Shown piece after piece: positions 8,516 to 19,364 of a DNA stretch of 21,476 nucleotides. The position numbers and the translations under genes are program-made. The stretch lies in IMG/VR virus record IMGVR_UViG_2526164632_000013; one strand, given 5' to 3'. The notes beneath the pieces are model-generated. The model was not told the DNA's origin, ran no database searches, and saw nothing but the letters and a program-made list of their open reading frames with translations. This DNA is from a virus. Its lineage: Duplodnaviria; Heunggongvirae; Uroviricota; Caudoviricetes. Within the stretch, counting starts at the first letter, position 1; each line of letters opens with the position of its first letter.

Positions 8516-8963
8516 GAATCCTCCCGGCCGGGATAATATTGTGAGTAAAATGAGGAGCGGGCTGAAGTCCGGAAGTTACAGGACAATGGCAGAAGAGAGA
8601 CAACAGCCCGCAATACGAAAAAGGCCGCGCTATTGCGCAGAGTGATTACTGTCGGATATTATTCGCCAGCTGAAATATTACTTCACGTTTTGTTGTTTAT
8701 TCCTTGCCGCCCGCGTCTCCCAGCGCGGGCTTTTTTTGTCCATAAGAAAGCCCCTCCGGAGAGGGGCTGGAGAGTGGCGCTATGTGCCATTGCATGGTGC
8801 CGGGTGCCTCCCGGTGAATTCAGTACCAGCACCTGAATCCGCGATTATCCCATATACCTACTCGCTGATTGCCCCTCCGCACAGGGGGATTCACCATGCC
8901 AGTTTCTTTTAACAAACTCCCCGCAAAACAGACAACTGTCAACCGTCTGAATTGTGAGACATT

Positions 8964-9003: not shown

Positions 9004-9080
9004 TGGCGCGTTGTACTGGATTCGAACCAGTGACCGATTGCTTAGAAGGCAATTGCTCTGTCCGGCTGAGCTAACAACGC
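9004..9080 (-). tRNA. argO: tRNA-Arg (anticodon UCU)
   Basis: Manual fold: acceptor GCGTTGT/ACAACGC, anticodon stem ATTGC/GCAAT, loop CTTCTAA (anticodon TCT), T-arm GGTTCGAATCC, discriminator G, CCA encoded. Symbol assigned by position, following the ileZ-argN-argO order of Stx-phage late regions. Confidence 0.85.
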
Positions 9081-9093
9081 ATGATGCAGATAA

Positions 9094-9170
9094 TGGACCG
9101 CCATCGGGGACTTGAACCCCGCGCAGCCAGCTTCGAAGGCTGGCGCTCTTTCCTGATGAGCTAATAGCGG
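9094..9170 (-). tRNA. argN: tRNA-Arg (anticodon UCG by manual fold)
   Basis: Acceptor CCGCTAT/ATGGCGG (one G-U pair), anticodon stem CCAGC/GCTGG with loop CTTCGAA (anticodon TCG), T-arm GGGGTTCAAGTCCCC, CCA encoded. Symbol by position only. Confidence 0.75.
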
Positions 9171-9177
9171 TATGTGA

Positions 9178-9253
9178 TGGTGGCCCTTGCTGGATTTGAA
9201 CCAGCGACCTGGCGATTATGAGTCGCTCGCTCTCACCACTGAGCTAAAGGGCC
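9178..9253 (-). tRNA. ileZ: tRNA-Ile2 (anticodon CAU, AUA-reading ileX/ileZ-like)
   Basis: GGCCCTTTAGCTCAGTGGTGAGAGCGAGCGACTCATAATCGCCAGGTCGCTGGTTCAAATCCAGCAAGGGCCACCA is near-identical to E. coli ileX as recalled; anticodon loop CTCATAA. Confidence 0.85.
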
Positions 9254-13723: not shown

Positions 13724-13879
13724 TTACTCCTCAGGTTCGTAAGCTGTGAAGACAGCGACCTCCGTCTGGCCGGTTCGGATTCGTACCTCGCAGAGGTCTT
13801 TCCTCGTTACCAGTGCCGTCACTATGACGGTTAAACAGATGACGATCAGGGCGATTAACATCGCCTTTTGCTGCTTCAT
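13724..13879 (-). CDS. hok: Hok/Gef-family type I toxin (HokD/RelF-like)
   Basis: 51 aa MKQQKAMLIALIVICLTVIVTALVTRKDLCEVRIRTGQTEVAVFTAYEPEE, the Hok family signature; AAGGAG Shine-Dalgarno. An in-frame upstream ATG (13936) with its own Shine-Dalgarno gives a 70-codon mok-like frame. Confidence 0.85.
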   Translation of the reverse strand: MKQQKAMLIALIVICLTVIVTALVTRKDLCEVRIRTGQTEVAVFTAYEPEE

Positions 13880-14090
13880 AGCCTGCTTCTCCTTGCCTTT
13901 CGGCGCGTAAGAGGCTAACCTACGTTTGTGAAGCATAGATTGGGCCTCAGATTAATGTTAAGCGTCTTGCAGGACGCGTAATGTTAACTGGGGCTTTTCT
14001 CTGTCTGCCTTACGGTGGCATGCCCGAGGCAGACAGCCTCAAGCACCCGCAGCAATTCTACTTAACTCCCGTCACCTCGCCAATATAAAA

Positions 14091-14180
14091 TCAATCAGAA
14101 AGGCGATCCATAAGAACAATAGCAAGACAATAAATTGCCACTACAGCCGCAATAGCCAGCGCGCATTTGAGAACCAGCAC
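14091..14180 (-). CDS. 29-codon hydrophobic ORF with strong RBS (hypothetical small membrane peptide)
   Basis: AGGAGG then 5 nt then GTG; (M)LVLKCALAIAAVVAIYCLAIVLMDRLSD; 70 nt downstream of the SIR2-like gene on the same strand. Not in the ORF track (under 60 aa). Confidence 0.35.
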   Translation of the reverse strand: MLVLKCALAIAAVVAIYCLAIVLMDRLSD

Positions 14181-14250
14181 GATAACCTCCTGTATTGGAC
14201 GTACACCAGCTCTGATAAATATGAGGCTGCCTCTTTAACTTCGCATTGCG

Positions 14251-15282
14251 CTACCAATCAATAAAATCAGTGATGTTATCCAACCTAATTACAGTAACTT
14301 CCCGTCTCAACTGGTTTTTCCAATATATCTCACGAGCGTTTTGTTCACCAGCACCGCTCCACTCAATTACTCTTAAAGGCTTAGAGGTTAGGTAAGGTCG
14401 AATAAGCAGGTTAAGGTGAATATCGAGACCAGAGTAACCAAACAATATTATTTCTTCTGATTCAAATAATGCAAACTGCAAATAATCCCAGTACGTAGAA
14501 AGAACATTAGATGCTGCTATAACTGACGGTTTTCTTTTTATATGAGTTAACACTATATGCTCACTAGGTTCATCTATGTCAAGAGTAAGTTGTGAGCGTG
14601 AAAGTTTTAAAACATTTTCATGCTGATTAATAAATAGTGGTGAACCATGCAAGTGCAAATAATAACCAAACCTACGATTGTATTTCCGTTCGAGCGCTGC
14701 AGAGGAAAATCCGTGGCTTAGCATCCCATCAACTAAAACCCCATCATACCCGTTGAATATATCATTATCTATGAATGAATTGTATAATAATTTGTCATAG
14801 TTTAATGTCGCGATATGTGAGTGTGTGTTCTTTACAAACTCCACAAGCGCATTTTCGAATCTTTGTGGCAAACCTTTATCGTAATTATGCAACCTGGTTG
14901 CAACTTTGTGAATATAAGTGGCGGTAATTTTGGGGAAGTTTAGTCCATCTTCAGTAAGCCAATGCACGTTCCCCTCTCCAATTTGAGCAAGAGCTTTACA
15001 ATATGTGACAGCCTGGTGAAGGGTATCCAACTCATGTTCTCCTTCTGGTGGACCTTGCCGCTGAAGACAACGCTCGATAAGTTGCTTGTGGATATCTTTT
15101 AAAAAATTGGGGCGATGCCAAATTTCTTCCAACGCTCTGTCTAAGGAGAAGTGAGCAGGATCTAAAGCCATACCGAGACCGTTGCCGAATATTATTAATT
15201 TTCTTGCCATATAGGGGGACTCATATTGGAATAACGCTGGATAGCGTCGCGCGATACGCTTAAGTTTAGGATTAATAGACAT
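14251..15282 (-). CDS. Standalone SIR2-like (SIR2_2-type) protein, candidate NADase defence effector
   Basis: 343 aa with the ordered motif set of defence-type SIR2 domains as recalled from ThsA: IIFGNGLGMA (Gly-rich NAD loop), IATLNYDKLL (TNYD-type, putative catalytic Asn161), YYLHLHGS (putative catalytic His212), ILFGYSGLD. No other domain. The gene and its 370-bp upstream region are visibly AT-rich compared with flanking phage genes (not computed). Confidence 0.8.
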   Translation of the reverse strand: MSINPKLKRIARRYPALFQYESPYMARKLIIFGNGLGMALDPAHFSLDRALEEIWHRPNFLKDIHKQLIERCLQRQGPPEGEHELDTLHQAVTYCKALAQIGEGNVHWLTEDGLNFPKITATYIHKVATRLHNYDKGLPQRFENALVEFVKNTHSHIATLNYDKLLYNSFIDNDIFNGYDGVLVDGMLSHGFSSAALERKYNRRFGYYLHLHGSPLFINQHENVLKLSRSQLTLDIDEPSEHIVLTHIKRKPSVIAASNVLSTYWDYLQFALFESEEIILFGYSGLDIHLNLLIRPYLTSKPLRVIEWSGAGEQNAREIYWKNQLRREVTVIRLDNITDFIDW

Positions 15283-15650
15283 TCCGTTTGATTACTCTTG
15301 TTATTACAAACTTGCATGCAAAGAAGCCCAAGCTGTTAGGTAAACAGAGACCGCAGTGGCAAGATAATCTAGATATAGCCTATAAAATCCAACAACAAAT
15401 AGCGGCCTGTTTTCTATGACTTTTCTTTTCCCTAAATATCGCTTATCTAATAAAATGCAATAATGTATTGCACAGTATTTAATGTGTATTAATATAGATA
15501 AGTATTGGTCTTATTTGATAACAAATCCTGAGCCTCAAAATGTCTGCTTTTCACACAAAACCAACAAGTAGGCTATTTTTAGCTCTGTGCCGCGAAAATG
15601 TCAATTCATATCCGAACCAATACTCTTTAATTTCATTACCTGTGACAATT

Positions 15651-16058
15651 CTAGGCATATCCCTGATAGAACGCCAATACACGCTGCATAACTTCGCTCT
15701 TCCGGCACTCGCGACAGATTATGTTCATACGCCTGTCGTAGCGGCGTATTTCTCCGTCGGGTAATGTCCAGATAAGGCCCGGATCAACCACAACAGGTTT
15801 CTTCACCTTTGCCCTCGAGAGTTTTTTGCGGGCGTTTTGCCAGTCCTTACGAGCCCGTTCTGACGGGAACACCCCATAGCCAGAGTGATATACATCACCA
15901 CTGGCAACCAGCTCTCTGGCAAGAACGCTCATCAGATATCTTGTCGCACCTGTTTTAGCTTCCAGTTGCCGTAACGTCTCACGACCGCTCTGGCGCACGA
16001 GTTCCACCACCTGTCCTTTAATTTTTTCCCGCTCTTCCTGTGTAAATACTTTTGCCAT
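15651..16058 (-). CDS. Hypothetical protein downstream of the replication initiator
   Basis: 135 aa; AGGAGG Shine-Dalgarno 4 nt upstream of the ATG; basic, with a CRECRK motif. Not recognisable as a helicase loader. Confidence 0.6.
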   Translation of the reverse strand: MAKVFTQEEREKIKGQVVELVRQSGRETLRQLEAKTGATRYLMSVLARELVASGDVYHSGYGVFPSERARKDWQNARKKLSRAKVKKPVVVDPGLIWTLPDGEIRRYDRRMNIICRECRKSEVMQRVLAFYQGYA

Positions 16059-16098
16059 AAGTCCTCCTGAACATTACTTTATGCCCTAAAATCACCAC

Positions 16099-17118
16099 TT
16101 ATCCCCTGAAACCAGGCGGAATTTCGGTATCCGGTTCAGAAATATGATTCACACAACACTGTACAGGTGAACGCCCCAGGCGGATGACCAGGTCGTCCCA
16201 TTTTTCGCGAAGCTTTGACGGGCTCATGATGTTTTTTACCCAGAATGGATCTCGCTGTACCCGACCAAACATTTCGCAAATTTGTCTGTGGCTTCTGCCA
16301 TCCAGCATCCGCATTGTGCGCACGTCATTGGCCCATGCGGTCCAGTTTGGTTCTTTCGGTCGCGTGATCTCGCCATCATCGCTGGCAGCCTGCTCGTAAA
16401 GACTCACGATTCGTCCCCAGATCCACTGTGCGCACGCCAAATCTTCCTGACTTCCCCACTGGCGTTTTTTCGCACTGAACACAACCGCGTCAGGGTGTCG
16501 GGTTAAAAAATCCTGTTCAGCCGTCTGCGGGTCCGGTTGCGAAGCTTCCGGACGAGAAGTGTTTTTATTCTCTGTAGTAATCTCTGTTGTATTCTCTGTA
16601 AGATCATCAGGCCATTTTGACCCGATGACATTGGGTCGTTTTGAACCAATGGAGCGTGCCATTTTGACCTCTTCCATCGTGTCATTTTGACCCGATGGAG
16701 CGGCGCATTTTGACCTGATGGATTCGCTCACTTTGCCACCATCTAAAAGCTCACTCTCGTAATTAATCGTGTAAAAATTAGTCATATCACGCTTTGATTT
16801 GTTGAGCTTTTCGCAACGCAAAAGCCCCAGCGTTTTCAGACTTGCAAATGCGCGTTTTAACGTTGACTCTGACCAGAACGGGAACTGTTCCAGCCATTGT
16901 TCTGTTGTGTTATAAATCCAGCGAACCCCGTCACATTCCATACCGGAACTGGTATCTCTCAACCAGTAATGCAACTGCTGCAACACAATGGCTTCATTTA
17001 AGCCAATCTTCATCGCAAGCTGTGTGTTTATAACCAGTGGGCGTTCAGCAAAAAGAAGGCTCATAATTCCATCCAGCTTTTTGTTGGTATTGCTGACGAT
17101 ACGCATGCTTGAAAGCAA
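16099..17118 (-). CDS. Replication initiator / replisome organiser (lambda O-like) containing the origin iterons
   Basis: 339 aa; N-terminal HTH-like region (PLVINTQLAMKIGLNEAIVLQQLHYWL...TLKRAFASLKTLGLL); central repetitive segment (TENTTEITTENKNT) encoded by DNA repeats; six 23-bp iterons inside the coding sequence. Start uncertain (17118, 17103 or 17064). Confidence 0.75.
   Translation of the reverse strand: MLSSMRIVSNTNKKLDGIMSLLFAERPLVINTQLAMKIGLNEAIVLQQLHYWLRDTSSGMECDGVRWIYNTTEQWLEQFPFWSESTLKRAFASLKTLGLLRCEKLNKSKRDMTNFYTINYESELLDGGKVSESIRSKCAAPSGQNDTMEEVKMARSIGSKRPNVIGSKWPDDLTENTTEITTENKNTSRPEASQPDPQTAEQDFLTRHPDAVVFSAKKRQWGSQEDLACAQWIWGRIVSLYEQAASDDGEITRPKEPNWTAWANDVRTMRMLDGRSHRQICEMFGRVQRDPFWVKNIMSPSKLREKWDDLVIRLGRSPVQCCVNHISEPDTEIPPGFRG
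16611..16740. repeat. Origin of replication iterons: six 23-bp-spaced repeats, core CATTTTGACC
   Basis: Cores at about 16613, 16637, 16660, 16683, 16706 and 16729 (CATTTTGACCC, CGTTTTGAACC, CATTTTGACCT, CATTTTGACCC, CATTTTGACCT, CACTTTGCCACC), flanked at 16741-16815 by an AT-rich stretch; the layout matches ori-lambda inside O. Confidence 0.7.
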
Positions 17119-17566
17119 TAGCTTTTTCTATAAGCTCGTCAGTCTCACGTTCCACAACAGATGGATCCGCAAAAAGCAGCCCGGACTCCACCACATCACC
17201 ATATTCTTTGTTTAACCCGGCGATCATGTACGTAATGCTTTTTCCGTCAGTAATTTCACAATACAACCTGAAATCGCTGATCCGGATAGCCTCCATAATT
17301 GCCGGAATCAGCGCCGTGAATTTTTCCCGCTTATCCCTGGTGTCGATAGCTTTCCAGCGTTCGAATATCTTCACCCGGTTAACGCCCAACGCCCGTTGAT
17401 CAACCTCGCCATCATTAAACGTGACGCGTTGAACATCGATGTTCGGGCGTTCTTTCAGAGCCCAGAATGCTTCCGTGATTAATATCGTCGCCTGCTCCTG
17501 TGTCATTCCTGGTCGGCATACCCAGGCATCCAGAGCCTCACAAACCTGTTCAGGGGTGATTTTCAT
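17045..17566 (-). CDS. Hypothetical early protein (cII-position gene)
   Basis: 173 aa; ATG start overlaps the end of the cro-like gene by 17 nt; family not recognised. Confidence 0.55.
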   Translation of the reverse strand: MKITPEQVCEALDAWVCRPGMTQEQATILITEAFWALKERPNIDVQRVTFNDGEVDQRALGVNRVKIFERWKAIDTRDKREKFTALIPAIMEAIRISDFRLYCEITDGKSITYMIAGLNKEYGDVVESGLLFADPSVVERETDELIEKAIAFKHAYRQQYQQKAGWNYEPSFC

Positions 17567-17777
17567 TGTTCAACCGCCCCGCCCGCTTTGCCTTACGATA
17601 TTCGTCATAAACTTTGGGGTCGTACTGAAGTTCCCCGCCGGATGCCTCTTGCAGGCGCATCGCGCGACCTTCAGGAACCAGTTCCCCCCATGCAGCAACA
17701 CTTGCCAGTTTCACTCCTGCGGCATTGGCAAGTTTTGTTTTGCTGCCAAAAAAAGTAATTGCGTCAACTTTAAGCAT
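17550..17777 (-). CDS. dicC: Cro-like regulator (DicC-like)
   Basis: 75 aa from the ATG at 17777 (a TTG one codon upstream gives 76); GAGGGGG Shine-Dalgarno; divergent from the DicA-like repressor; size as recalled for DicC (76 aa). Confidence 0.75.
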   Translation of the reverse strand: MLKVDAITFFGSKTKLANAAGVKLASVAAWGELVPEGRAMRLQEASGGELQYDPKVYDEYRKAKRAGRLNNENHP

Positions 17778-17780
17778 CAA

Positions 17781-17857
17781 AGCCCCCTCTTGTTAGATAT
17801 TCCTAACAGTAATGTGCGCGGGATACCTAAGTCAAGAAAAATTAGAATTACCTAACT
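17781..17857. promoter_or_regulatory. Divergent dicA/dicC control region with operator-like inverted repeat TGTTAG-N6-CTAACA
   Basis: 77-bp intergenic region between divergent regulator genes; inverted repeat at about 17792-17809; same half-site as the sites downstream of dicA. Confidence 0.5.
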
Positions 17858-18265
17858 ATGGATACAAGAACCCTAGGCCAGCGAGTTCTGGCACGACGAA
17901 AAGAATTACGCCTAACACAACGAGAAGCTGCACGCCTCGCTGGGGTAGCTCACGTCACAATTTCACAATGGGAAAGAGACGAAACCCAACCGGTCGGGAA
18001 GCGGTTATTTGCTTTAGCTGATGCGCTGAAGTGCTCGCCTACATGGCTAATGTTTGGTGACGAAGACAAGGCACCAGTGCCAGCACAAGAACTTCATGTG
18101 GAAACCGAGTTAACTCCCAGCCACAAAGAATTGATCGAATTATTCGATGCTCTTCCCTCCTCCGAGCAGGAAGCCTTACTGTCTGAAATGCGCGCAAGAG
18201 TAGAGAATTTCAATAAACTCTTCGAAGAAATGCTTAAAGCACGTAAAAACAAATCAATAAAATAA
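17858..18265 (+). CDS. dicA: XRE-family HTH repressor (DicA-like)
   Basis: 135 aa; HTH LRLTQREAARLAGVAHVTISQWERDETQP; C-terminal ...SPTWLMFGDEDK...MRARVENFNKLFEEMLKAR resembles DicA as recalled; 135 aa is the size recalled for DicA. Confidence 0.8.
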   Translation: MDTRTLGQRVLARRKELRLTQREAARLAGVAHVTISQWERDETQPVGKRLFALADALKCSPTWLMFGDEDKAPVPAQELHVETELTPSHKELIELFDALPSSEQEALLSEMRARVENFNKLFEEMLKARKNKSIK

Positions 18266-19306: not shown

Positions 19307-19364
19307 TTTCTGGTGACGTTTGGCGGTATCAGTTTTACTCCGTGACTGCTCTGCCGCCGTTTTT
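19307..19364 (+). ncRNA. dicF: DicF small regulatory RNA (ftsZ-targeting)
   Basis: TTTCTGGTGACGTTTGGCGGTATCAGTTTTACTCCGTGACTGCTCTGCCGCC followed by GTTTTT matches the 53-nt DicF sequence as recalled; lies in a 570-bp non-coding gap between the ydfC-like and dicB-like genes, as in Qin. Confidence 0.8.

Follow-up and report, generated by a model that had tools for sequence, protein, structure and literature searches.

Phage lambda (O and P) and the Stx phages 933W and P27 carry their origin of replication in the middle of the initiator gene, where iterons with dyad symmetry lie beside an AT-rich unwinding region. Six iterons are found in the 933W and P27 origins, and iteron number differs among relatives (4 vs 6; PMC7466680). 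Here, we analyzed a 21,476-nucleotide (nt) stretch of DNA from the virus record IMGVR_UViG_2526164632_000013 (hereafter “the window”), which is a lambdoid prophage of E. coli, and focused on its O-like replication initiator gene (16099–17064, minus strand; 321 amino acids (aa) from the RefSeq start, with the mechanical open reading frame (ORF) reaching 17118). Overall, the segment at ~16525–16749, in the linker-coding part of this gene, is probably the vegetative origin of a Qin/mEp460-type lambdoid prophage that would obtain the host loader through the C-terminal tail of the initiator. Four lines of evidence from the sequence, independent of one another, speak for the origin reading. The origin is a new sequence type of a known design, and the module, which lacks a loader and has a DnaT-type tail, varies the known initiator–loader architecture. 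As in lambda, the initiator gene belongs to a cro-cII-O early operon, and sister modules of the window carry P. Unlike in lambda, the N-terminal domain does not belong to Phage_rep_O of Pfam, the iterons have different arms and a different period (23 nt), a conserved 12-nt repeat array forms the AT-rich element, P is absent, and the initiator bears a DnaT-type tail. A preliminary description of this DNA had proposed an ori-lambda layout with a different iteron sequence, and this holds: iterons and a low-stability element both lie in the linker-coding middle of the gene, and the iteron centre, TCAAAAYGA, resembles the lambda iteron ATCCCTCAAAACGAGGGA (PMC7466680).

The iteron array spans 16605–16743 and comprises six 23-nt units (16605–16627, 16629–16651, 16652–16674, 16675–16697, 16698–16720, and 16721–16743) with the core GGTCAAAATG on the coding strand. 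It is placed inside the initiator coding sequence (gene nt 322–501, aa 108–167), in the interdomain region. Six evenly spaced 23-bp iterons had been described previously: the 23-nt periodicity was reproduced by a repeat finder and Tandem Repeats Finder, but only five units are clear, one of their spacings is 24 nt (24, 23, 23, and 23 nt), and the sixth unit, in register, is degenerate (core CACTTTGCCA, 7/10 matches). Four exact copies of the 10-mer CATTTTGACC are present in the window, all of them within 16613–16715, for an expectation of 0.12, and none of 100 shuffled sequences reached four copies. When up to two mismatches were allowed, the motif was at chance level window-wide (24 found vs 25.8 expected), i.e., the signal is the cluster and not the motif count. 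Three units (16605–16627, 16629–16651, and 16675–16697) are 10+3+10 palindromes fitting a 23-nt dyad consensus, for which the chance expectation from shuffles is 0. For a lambda-type origin, at least four repeated sites with dyad symmetry would be expected, and the array offers five clear units and one degenerate unit, with the dyad consensus fitted by three.

Adjacent to the iterons, three 12-nt repeats (ACAGAGAWTACW on the coding strand) at 16566–16601 form a candidate DNA-unwinding element. These had been noted before as three TCTCTGT repeats preceding the iterons within the initiator coding sequence, and they were found as such, with copies starting at 16569, 16581, and 16593 (period 12; seven TCTCTGT in the whole window vs 1.86 expected). 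The 40-mer covering this array (16562–16601) is the least stable of 15600–17800 (free energy, dG, −44.3; top 0.8% of the window), and the second least stable is 16760–16799 (dG −45.1; top 1.2% of the window). The low-stability DNA expected of such an origin is thus found on either side of the iterons, which are flanked by AT-rich sequence in both directions. A single GATC stands at 16602–16605, between the last iteron and the first 12-mer, and recurs at the same position in the related loci L008, L009, L016, and L113, with a possible link to Dam or SeqA. In addition, a natural 290-aa variant of the initiator (L116, protein P0020) lacks exactly 31 linker residues, i.e., 93 nt or four iterons, in frame (~16629–16721), and retains the 12-mer-proximal iteron and the degenerate distal copy.

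Next, we evaluated nucleotide diversity (pi) along the gene in an alignment of 62 distinct close relatives (84–100% identical) from viral and genome collections. Synonymous sites are near-frozen in a zone at 16525–16749 (gene nt 316–540): third-position diversity is 0.021 there vs 0.157 in the rest of the gene (Mann–Whitney p 3.5e-10). Diversity at codon positions 1 and 2 is not lower in this zone (0.036 inside vs 0.023 outside), the reverse of a normal coding constraint. Iteron cores are almost invariant among the 62 relatives, with changes confined to arms and spacers, and the 12-mer array (pi 0.002) is the most conserved segment of the initiator gene. Since 23 is not a multiple of three, the core GGTCAAAATG is read in all three frames, translating as RSKC, GQND, VKMA, GSKR, and GSKW, which indicates that the repeat is maintained as DNA and not as peptide. 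As judged from these aligned sequences, the patterns show both iterons and 12-mers to be under DNA-level selection. The frozen-synonymous zone also continues ~40 nt past the 12-mers, over AAAAACACTTCTCGTCCGGAAGCTTCGCAACCGGAC on the coding strand (16525–16565).

These diversity patterns also bear on where the DNA would open. The preliminary description placed an AT-rich flank at 16741–16815 beside the iterons, described the TCTCTGT repeats as encoding a peptide linker, and raised a truncation of the module as a possibility. The corresponding reading, in which this flank is the unwinding element, TCTCTGT serves purely as a peptide linker, and a SIR2 island has truncated the module, is one that we consider quite unlikely. 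The flank is indeed AT-rich and of low stability, as it includes the 40-mer at 16760–16799, and GC content is 0.32–0.38 over 16720–16819. However, it shows an ordinary coding pattern, with diversity of 0.143 at third positions and 0.012 at positions 1 and 2, i.e., ordinary synonymous variation under strong amino acid constraint, and encodes KLNKSKRDMTNFYTINYESELL of the winged-helix wing. The flank lies N-terminal of the iterons in the coding direction, while the 12-mer array lies downstream of them in the direction of transcription. The AT-rich region of lambda sits downstream of its iterons. In favor of the linker interpretation, each 12-mer keeps the reading frame, and together they code for a T-E-x-T repeat (LTENTTEITTENKN, minus strand), so that the earlier peptide assignment stands, but the same repeats are also the least stable and most conserved DNA of the region. 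They further rely on ACA, ACT, and GAG codons, which are in the minority elsewhere in the gene (Thr ACA/ACT in 5/5 cases inside vs 6/16 outside, and Glu GAG in 3/3 vs 6/22, a suggestive comparison on a small sample), and in Bacillus and Staphylococcus the motif is found in two frames. Because 16741–16815 varies like normal coding DNA while the 12-mers are both most conserved and least stable, the 12-mer array is more likely to be the unwinding element. The GC content of both flanks, compared across relatives, separated the two candidates poorly. Conservation of the 12-mer sequence suggests a role beyond low stability. Tentatively, the ACAGAGAWTACW 12-mers might be recognized as single strands in a sequence-specific manner, and be retained as such an element all the way from enterobacterial to staphylococcal phages, instead of being generic AT-rich DNA.

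If the iterons are bound by the initiator, they may be expected to follow its DNA-binding domain. We compared 32 initiator genes with mixed domain combinations, scoring the core GGTCAAAATG with one mismatch allowed. The core was detected in 17 of the 19 genes with a homologous N-terminal domain and in none of the 13 with another N-terminal domain (Fisher p 3e-7), and core-negative genes include some whose C-terminal domains are up to 94% identical to that of the window. Where repeats were detected, genes with a different N-terminal domain carry other types, i.e., a 15-nt TCTGACCCGTCAAAA in L018, a 23-nt GTGTCACTACCACAGTGACAAAG in the Phage_rep_O gene of L026, and yet another in L011. Such co-occurrence would be anticipated for iterons that serve as binding sites of the N-terminal domain. 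A last reading, in which the repeats have no role as DNA and are just a low-complexity linker in the peptide or a scar of recombination, would fit their location in a disordered linker and their variable copy number, yet it is extremely improbable given that the core occurs in three frames, that synonymous sites are frozen while non-synonymous sites are not, and that the core co-varies with the DNA-binding domain.

This association is independent of the C-terminal domain and extends well beyond enterobacteria, spanning phages from several phyla. Domains 50–78% identical to the N-terminal domain of the window are encoded by phages of Klebsiella, Pseudomonas, Staphylococcus, and Bacillus. A cassette in which the iterons precede three to five ACAGAGAWTACW units recurs in Trabulsiella, Edwardsiella, Citrobacter, Enterobacter, Raoultella, Izhakiella, and a Klebsiella phage. 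In Pseudomonas phage AF, 12-mers are present and no clear iterons, and Staphylococcus phage 96 and a Bacillus prophage have both elements in recognizable form, with the motif repeating every 11 nt or occurring in two frames. The 12-mers are also associated with two unrelated N-terminal domains (L011 and L241). Among described systems, the “DnaD-like” initiators of the Staphylococcus phage 96 type are close to the window at the N-terminus (50% identical), with GGACAAAATG iterons and a ACAGAGACTA motif at the same place, but their C-terminal domain is DnaB_2-like, and the genes after them encode a phage helicase loader and a DnaB-like helicase. In Staphylococcus phage 96 (L111, 2492–3247), Bacillus sp. 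(L023, 3992–4984), and Pseudomonas phage AF (L112, 2501–3286), the N-terminal domain is 50–59% identical and travels with GG(T/A)CAAAATG iterons and/or ACAGAGA-type 11- or 12-mers within the gene. Their C-terminal parts and next genes vary, with a loader and DnaB-like helicase in one and a primase-helicase in another.

The initiator itself matches phrog_391, “replication initiation O-like” (E 7.5e-95; residues 35–339 of the 339-aa ORF, profile positions 11–298 of 298). A Pfam and NCBIfam search of the protein returned no family, both its N-terminal domain and its C-terminal domain (here “type A”) being uncovered by models; Phage_rep_O (PF04492) was not matched at E 0.01, while the control L026 matched it at 2.7e-34. 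Labels of this protein differ between resources: RefSeq has “hypothetical protein”, RAST-style phage records have “Primosomal protein I”, and PHROGs have “replication initiation O-like”. An AlphaFold2 (AF2) model suggests three parts. An N-terminal winged-helix DNA-binding domain (aa 1–108; 16741–17064, minus strand) is predicted with helices and a beta-hairpin over aa 14–108 (pLDDT 60–86). It is followed by a disordered interdomain linker housing the origin (aa 109–175; 16540–16740, minus strand; pLDDT about 25) and by a helical type-A C-terminal domain (aa 183–296; 16177–16518, minus strand; pLDDT 70–90; phrog_2357/277/2514). With the full-length model, Foldseek retrieved only generic, weak winged-helix matches, the top class being RepA_N initiators (4pql and 5kbj, also 4pt7); 4pql and 5kbj had weak E-values of 0.035–0.06 and TM-scores of 0.44–0.45 on the target, and generic winged-helix regulators score alike. 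RepA_N plasmids keep an iteron origin inside the rep gene. The Gram-positive RepA_N initiators (pSK41, pTZ2162) compare with the window through their winged-helix N-terminal domain as the top structural match class, but with weak Foldseek E-values (0.035–0.3), no sequence similarity, and a plasmid rather than phage context. The type-A C-terminal domain also occurs behind unrelated N-terminal domains (L152, 94% identical). The possibility that this whole domain is DnaT-like or DnaD-like was considered and dropped, as no Foldseek neighbor was found (best E 4).

The C-terminus ends in an 18-residue DnaT-type tail, CVNHISEPDTEIPPGFRG (16102–16155, minus strand), identified with phmmer and tblastn. 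A phmmer search against PDB sequences aligned only these last 18 residues, to DnaT 162–179 (2ru8, 6aep, and 9zbt), and with K-12 DnaT as the tblastn query (E 1.3e-5), 13 of the last 17 residues were identical to DnaT 163–179. The tail conforms to the pattern ...SEPDxxIPPGFRG. The remainder of the initiator matches neither NF002770 nor the DnaT domain PF17948, which does detect K-12 DnaT and the phage protein in L186, and the “Primosomal protein I” label on phage records is owed to the tail alone. Compared to E. coli DnaT (primosomal protein I), the window protein thus has the tail in common, and dnaT lies beside dnaC much as FRG-tail phage initiators often lie beside dnaC-like genes, but it lacks PF17948 and its C-terminal domain is of a different, unmatched fold. 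Genuine DnaT domains (PF17948) together with the tail do occur in some phage initiators, with up to 62.8% identity to DnaT 86–179 (L186); tail-bearing initiators of the DnaT-domain or YdaU-like type were seen in the IMG/VR contigs L186, L124, and L123.

We then asked which gene follows initiators with a given tail. The sister prophage L115 shares the repressor-cro-YdaT backbone. Its initiator, 72% identical in pairwise alignment (77% in the search table), has the end ...DWNSADGWEDVL, and the next genes are Phage_lambda_P and then DUF977. Similarly, the initiators of L016 and L014 share their N-terminal and Phg_2220_C domains, but L016 ends in ...SPEAWENTL and has P, while L014 ends in ...IPPGFRG and does not. 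We scanned IMG/VR for both tails and de-duplicated the first 120 and 54 pattern matches; all counts below are among the matches listed. For 93 non-redundant IP[PA]GFRG-stop loci with downstream sequence, the next gene was P-like in 0/93 and DnaC-like in 24/93, the rest being DUF977 (26), a PerC-domain protein (33), or other (10). For AWENTL-stop initiators, P was next in 43/43 and a DnaC-like gene in 0/43. The association between tail and neighbor is significant for both P (Fisher p 2e-36) and DnaC-like genes (p 5e-5). These DnaC-like neighbors share 48–50% identity with E. coli DnaC, and their coding sequences usually begin 6 nt past the initiator stop codon. A DnaC-like gene 6 nt downstream accompanies the exact tail of the window in 11 cases and is lacking in 13, and one 320-aa initiator type occurs both with and without a DnaC-like gene. 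At least five different protein bodies carry the tail, and these sequence comparisons show it to be a portable module tied to loader type. The arrangement on the K-12 chromosome, where dnaT is immediately upstream of dnaC (L114, 1239–2518), mirrors the phage initiator–loader pair. The tail-to-loader rule was not found described in the literature searched.

Several described or related modules share this tail in other contexts. Rac-type YdaU-YdaV-YdaW modules have YdaU-like DUF1376 initiators (L123) that bear the FRG tail and are followed by DnaC-like and then DUF977 genes; they differ from the window in their N-terminal domain and in having a DnaC-like loader encoded by the phage. The domesticated O-like/P-like pair DopC/DopE (Brezellec et al. 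2017, PMC5509034) resembles the window in combining an O-like N-terminus with a DnaT C-terminal motif, but DopC is chromosomal, paired with a P-like protein, and without detected iterons, whereas the window has iterons and no P, and its tail is anti-correlated with P. In the FRG-tail group formed by L011, L012, L014, L018–L020, and 33 IMG/VR loci, a 145–165-aa PerC-domain (PF06069) gene takes the place of DUF977 and overlaps the initiator stop codon (−4 nt).

No loader gene follows the initiator in the window, as had been described: the next genes are DUF977 and SIR2, and tblastn with E. coli DnaC, three P proteins, a phage DnaB-like helicase, and a phage loader detected none of these in the window or in the complete genome of phage HannyBb, whose annotation lists no loader or helicase either. 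A P gene (PF06992) is thus not adjacent to the initiator, and the module qualifies as loader-less in the sense that no helicase or loader gene was found in module or genome. Weigel and Seitz reportedly recognized, in 2006, an “initiator-solo” category of phage replication modules; in the literature searched, no usable account was found of “initiator-solo”, of replisome-organizer genes with iterons, of DUF977, or of YdaU/YdaV together with DnaT. The suggestion that the module had been truncated by the SIR2 island did not survive comparison: the same cro-cII/YdaT-O-DUF977 order occurs in phages HannyBb, mEp460_ev081, and PhiR42_1, the contiguous cro-YdaT-O-DUF977 block is present in 1390 of 5426 complete E. 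coli genomes, and the O-DUF977 junction is identical in phage and in these ~1390 genomes, with the cargo slot beyond DUF977.

The 135-aa protein encoded after the initiator (15651–16058, minus strand), which was previously given as unknown, is where it was said to be but belongs to DUF977 (PF06163, YdaW/LygF-type; E 1.7e-29), with a full-length match over residues 1–134 (103 bits vs a Pfam cut-off of 22.1). Its gene comes right after the initiator, in the place of P, and a DNA-binding N-terminus is predicted (phrog_2391), so that it may be suspected of being an unrecognized helicase loader replacing P. We consider this very unlikely: DUF977 follows P in L115, DnaC-like genes in 24 loci, and the initiator directly in 26, and since it occurs downstream of both types of loader, it should not be a substitute for them. 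Other FRG-tail initiators precede the unrelated PerC-domain protein or something else. A homologue search with the DUF977 protein returned only near-identical E. coli proteins.

Given a module without P, DnaC-like, or helicase gene, the initiator is proposed to recruit host DnaB6–DnaC6. The use of a host loader, already raised in the preliminary description, is supported by inference, as the IPPGFRG tail goes with DnaC-like loaders and never with P. We infer that the tail would dock a DnaC-type loader, most simply as DnaB6–DnaC6, and that modules without a dnaC-like gene would use that of the host. Tentatively, the IPxGFRG peptide of DnaT and of many enterobacterial phage initiators could be a portable dock for DnaC-type loaders or DnaB6–DnaC6, and with it the physical link between the PriA–PriB–DnaT preprimosome and DnaB/DnaC. 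From earlier work, removing DnaT 154–179 about halves affinity for single-stranded DNA (PMC4132743). In the 2026 preprimosome structures, the PriA-docked DnaT unit was modelled from residues 84–153, and their authors propose the DnaT N-terminal domain as DnaB/DnaC recruiter while calling the mechanism unknown (PMC13377028).

Alternatively, the IPPGFRG tail may recruit PriA or the PriA–PriB–DnaT primosome instead of DnaC or DnaB–DnaC, and the origin would then fire through the restart pathway, like a primosome assembly site. That the tail is the tail of DnaT, whose C-terminal domain docks on PriA (PMC13377028), speaks for this, and it would account for the missing loader gene. We still consider it unlikely, as the PriA-docked unit was modelled from 4OU7, i.e., DnaT 84–153 without the tail, and the window protein has no match to the DnaT domain (PF17948). 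Moreover, the tail stands beside a DnaC-like loader in 24/93 loci, and in other initiators a P-specific tail is found in its place, an alternation that indicates the loader as the target.

Taken together, the preferred reading of a host-loaded lambda-type origin would operate as follows. Dimers of the N-terminal domain would bind the iterons to form an O-some-like complex, and the adjacent 12-mer array would melt, with transcription from the cro promoter through the origin probably aiding melting, as in lambda. The initiator would then bring in host DnaB6–DnaC6 through its C-terminal IPPGFRG tail, which would correspond to the AWENTL-type tail of the P-associated sister initiators. DUF977 would be an accessory gene in the position of lambda ren, and the SIR2 gene occupies a variable cargo slot further downstream and leaves the module undisturbed. 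Several points weigh against this reading. In the literature searched, no binding, unwinding, or replication assay was found for this origin type, and the DnaT literature searched assigns no partner to residues 154–179. The segment at 16760–16799 is nearly as unstable as the 12-mer array, and thermodynamics alone cannot place the start of melting. The enterobacterial 12-mers are always in the T-E-x-T frame, so some peptide-level constraint is possible there, two-frame reading of the motif being confined to the Bacillus and Staphylococcus versions. The C-terminal domain alone had no fold neighbor in a Foldseek search against PDB (best E 4), and no DnaT structure was among the matches. Finally, the neighbor statistics come from one collection, and the loci are not phylogenetically independent.

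At the scale of the locus, a query with 15600–17800 gave 100% identity to E. coli O111:H2 strain 12A and two further genomes, and in strain 12A, the sequence is a prophage with the integrase at one end that adjoins yccA. The early-right operon is on the minus strand and runs cro-like, YdaT/cII-like, O-like initiator, DUF977, SIR2, hokD/sok, and rem. Its first gene, from which the operon reads rightward through the origin, is cro-like (17550–17780, minus strand; PF14549 P22_Cro), and a divergent cI-like repressor gene lies at 17858–18265 on the plus strand. The YdaT/cII-like gene (17045–17566, minus strand; PF06254, phrog_163) overlaps the annotated initiator start by 20 nt at its 3' end (17045–17064), which suggests translational coupling. 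Between DUF977 and hokD/sok, the slot at 14049–15650 is a variable cargo site, holding the SIR2-like gene here (14251–15282, minus strand; weak PADLOC matches to Aga_SIR2 and PDC-S21, E about 4e-6 to 8e-6) and unrelated genes in relatives, i.e., a methyltransferase and a hypothetical protein in HannyBb, an opposite-strand 449-aa ORF in mEp460_ev081, and other ORFs in L006 and L010. Rfam matches in the window comprise the sok antisense RNA beside hokD (13874–14048), DicF (19308–19359), and the small RNA STnc100 (8738–8928), and three tRNA genes lie at 9007–9253; no RNA family was found by the Rfam scan within the origin region. A DnaA box search yielded none close to the origin, the nearest being at 15087–15095 with one mismatch, and a promoter and terminator scan was uninformative across the origin region.

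For annotation, the gain is a replication module present in about a quarter of complete E. coli genomes, in which the initiator is called “hypothetical protein” by RefSeq and “Primosomal protein I” by other pipelines. Conservation of the iteron-plus-12-mer cassette across phyla points to a mobile unit of origin and DNA-binding domain, recombined with host-specific C-terminal adaptors. The tail follows a rule of its own, with interchangeable bodies bearing an AWENTL-type tail beside P and an IPPGFRG tail beside a DnaC-like loader or none, which provides a testable hypothesis for how loader-less lambdoid phages may load DnaB: if the dock proposed above is real, phages bearing IPxGFRG on their initiator can discard their own loader gene. 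By extension, the tail rule suggests which part of DnaT may hand DnaB–DnaC to the restart primosome, a step called unresolved in recent structural and biochemical papers.

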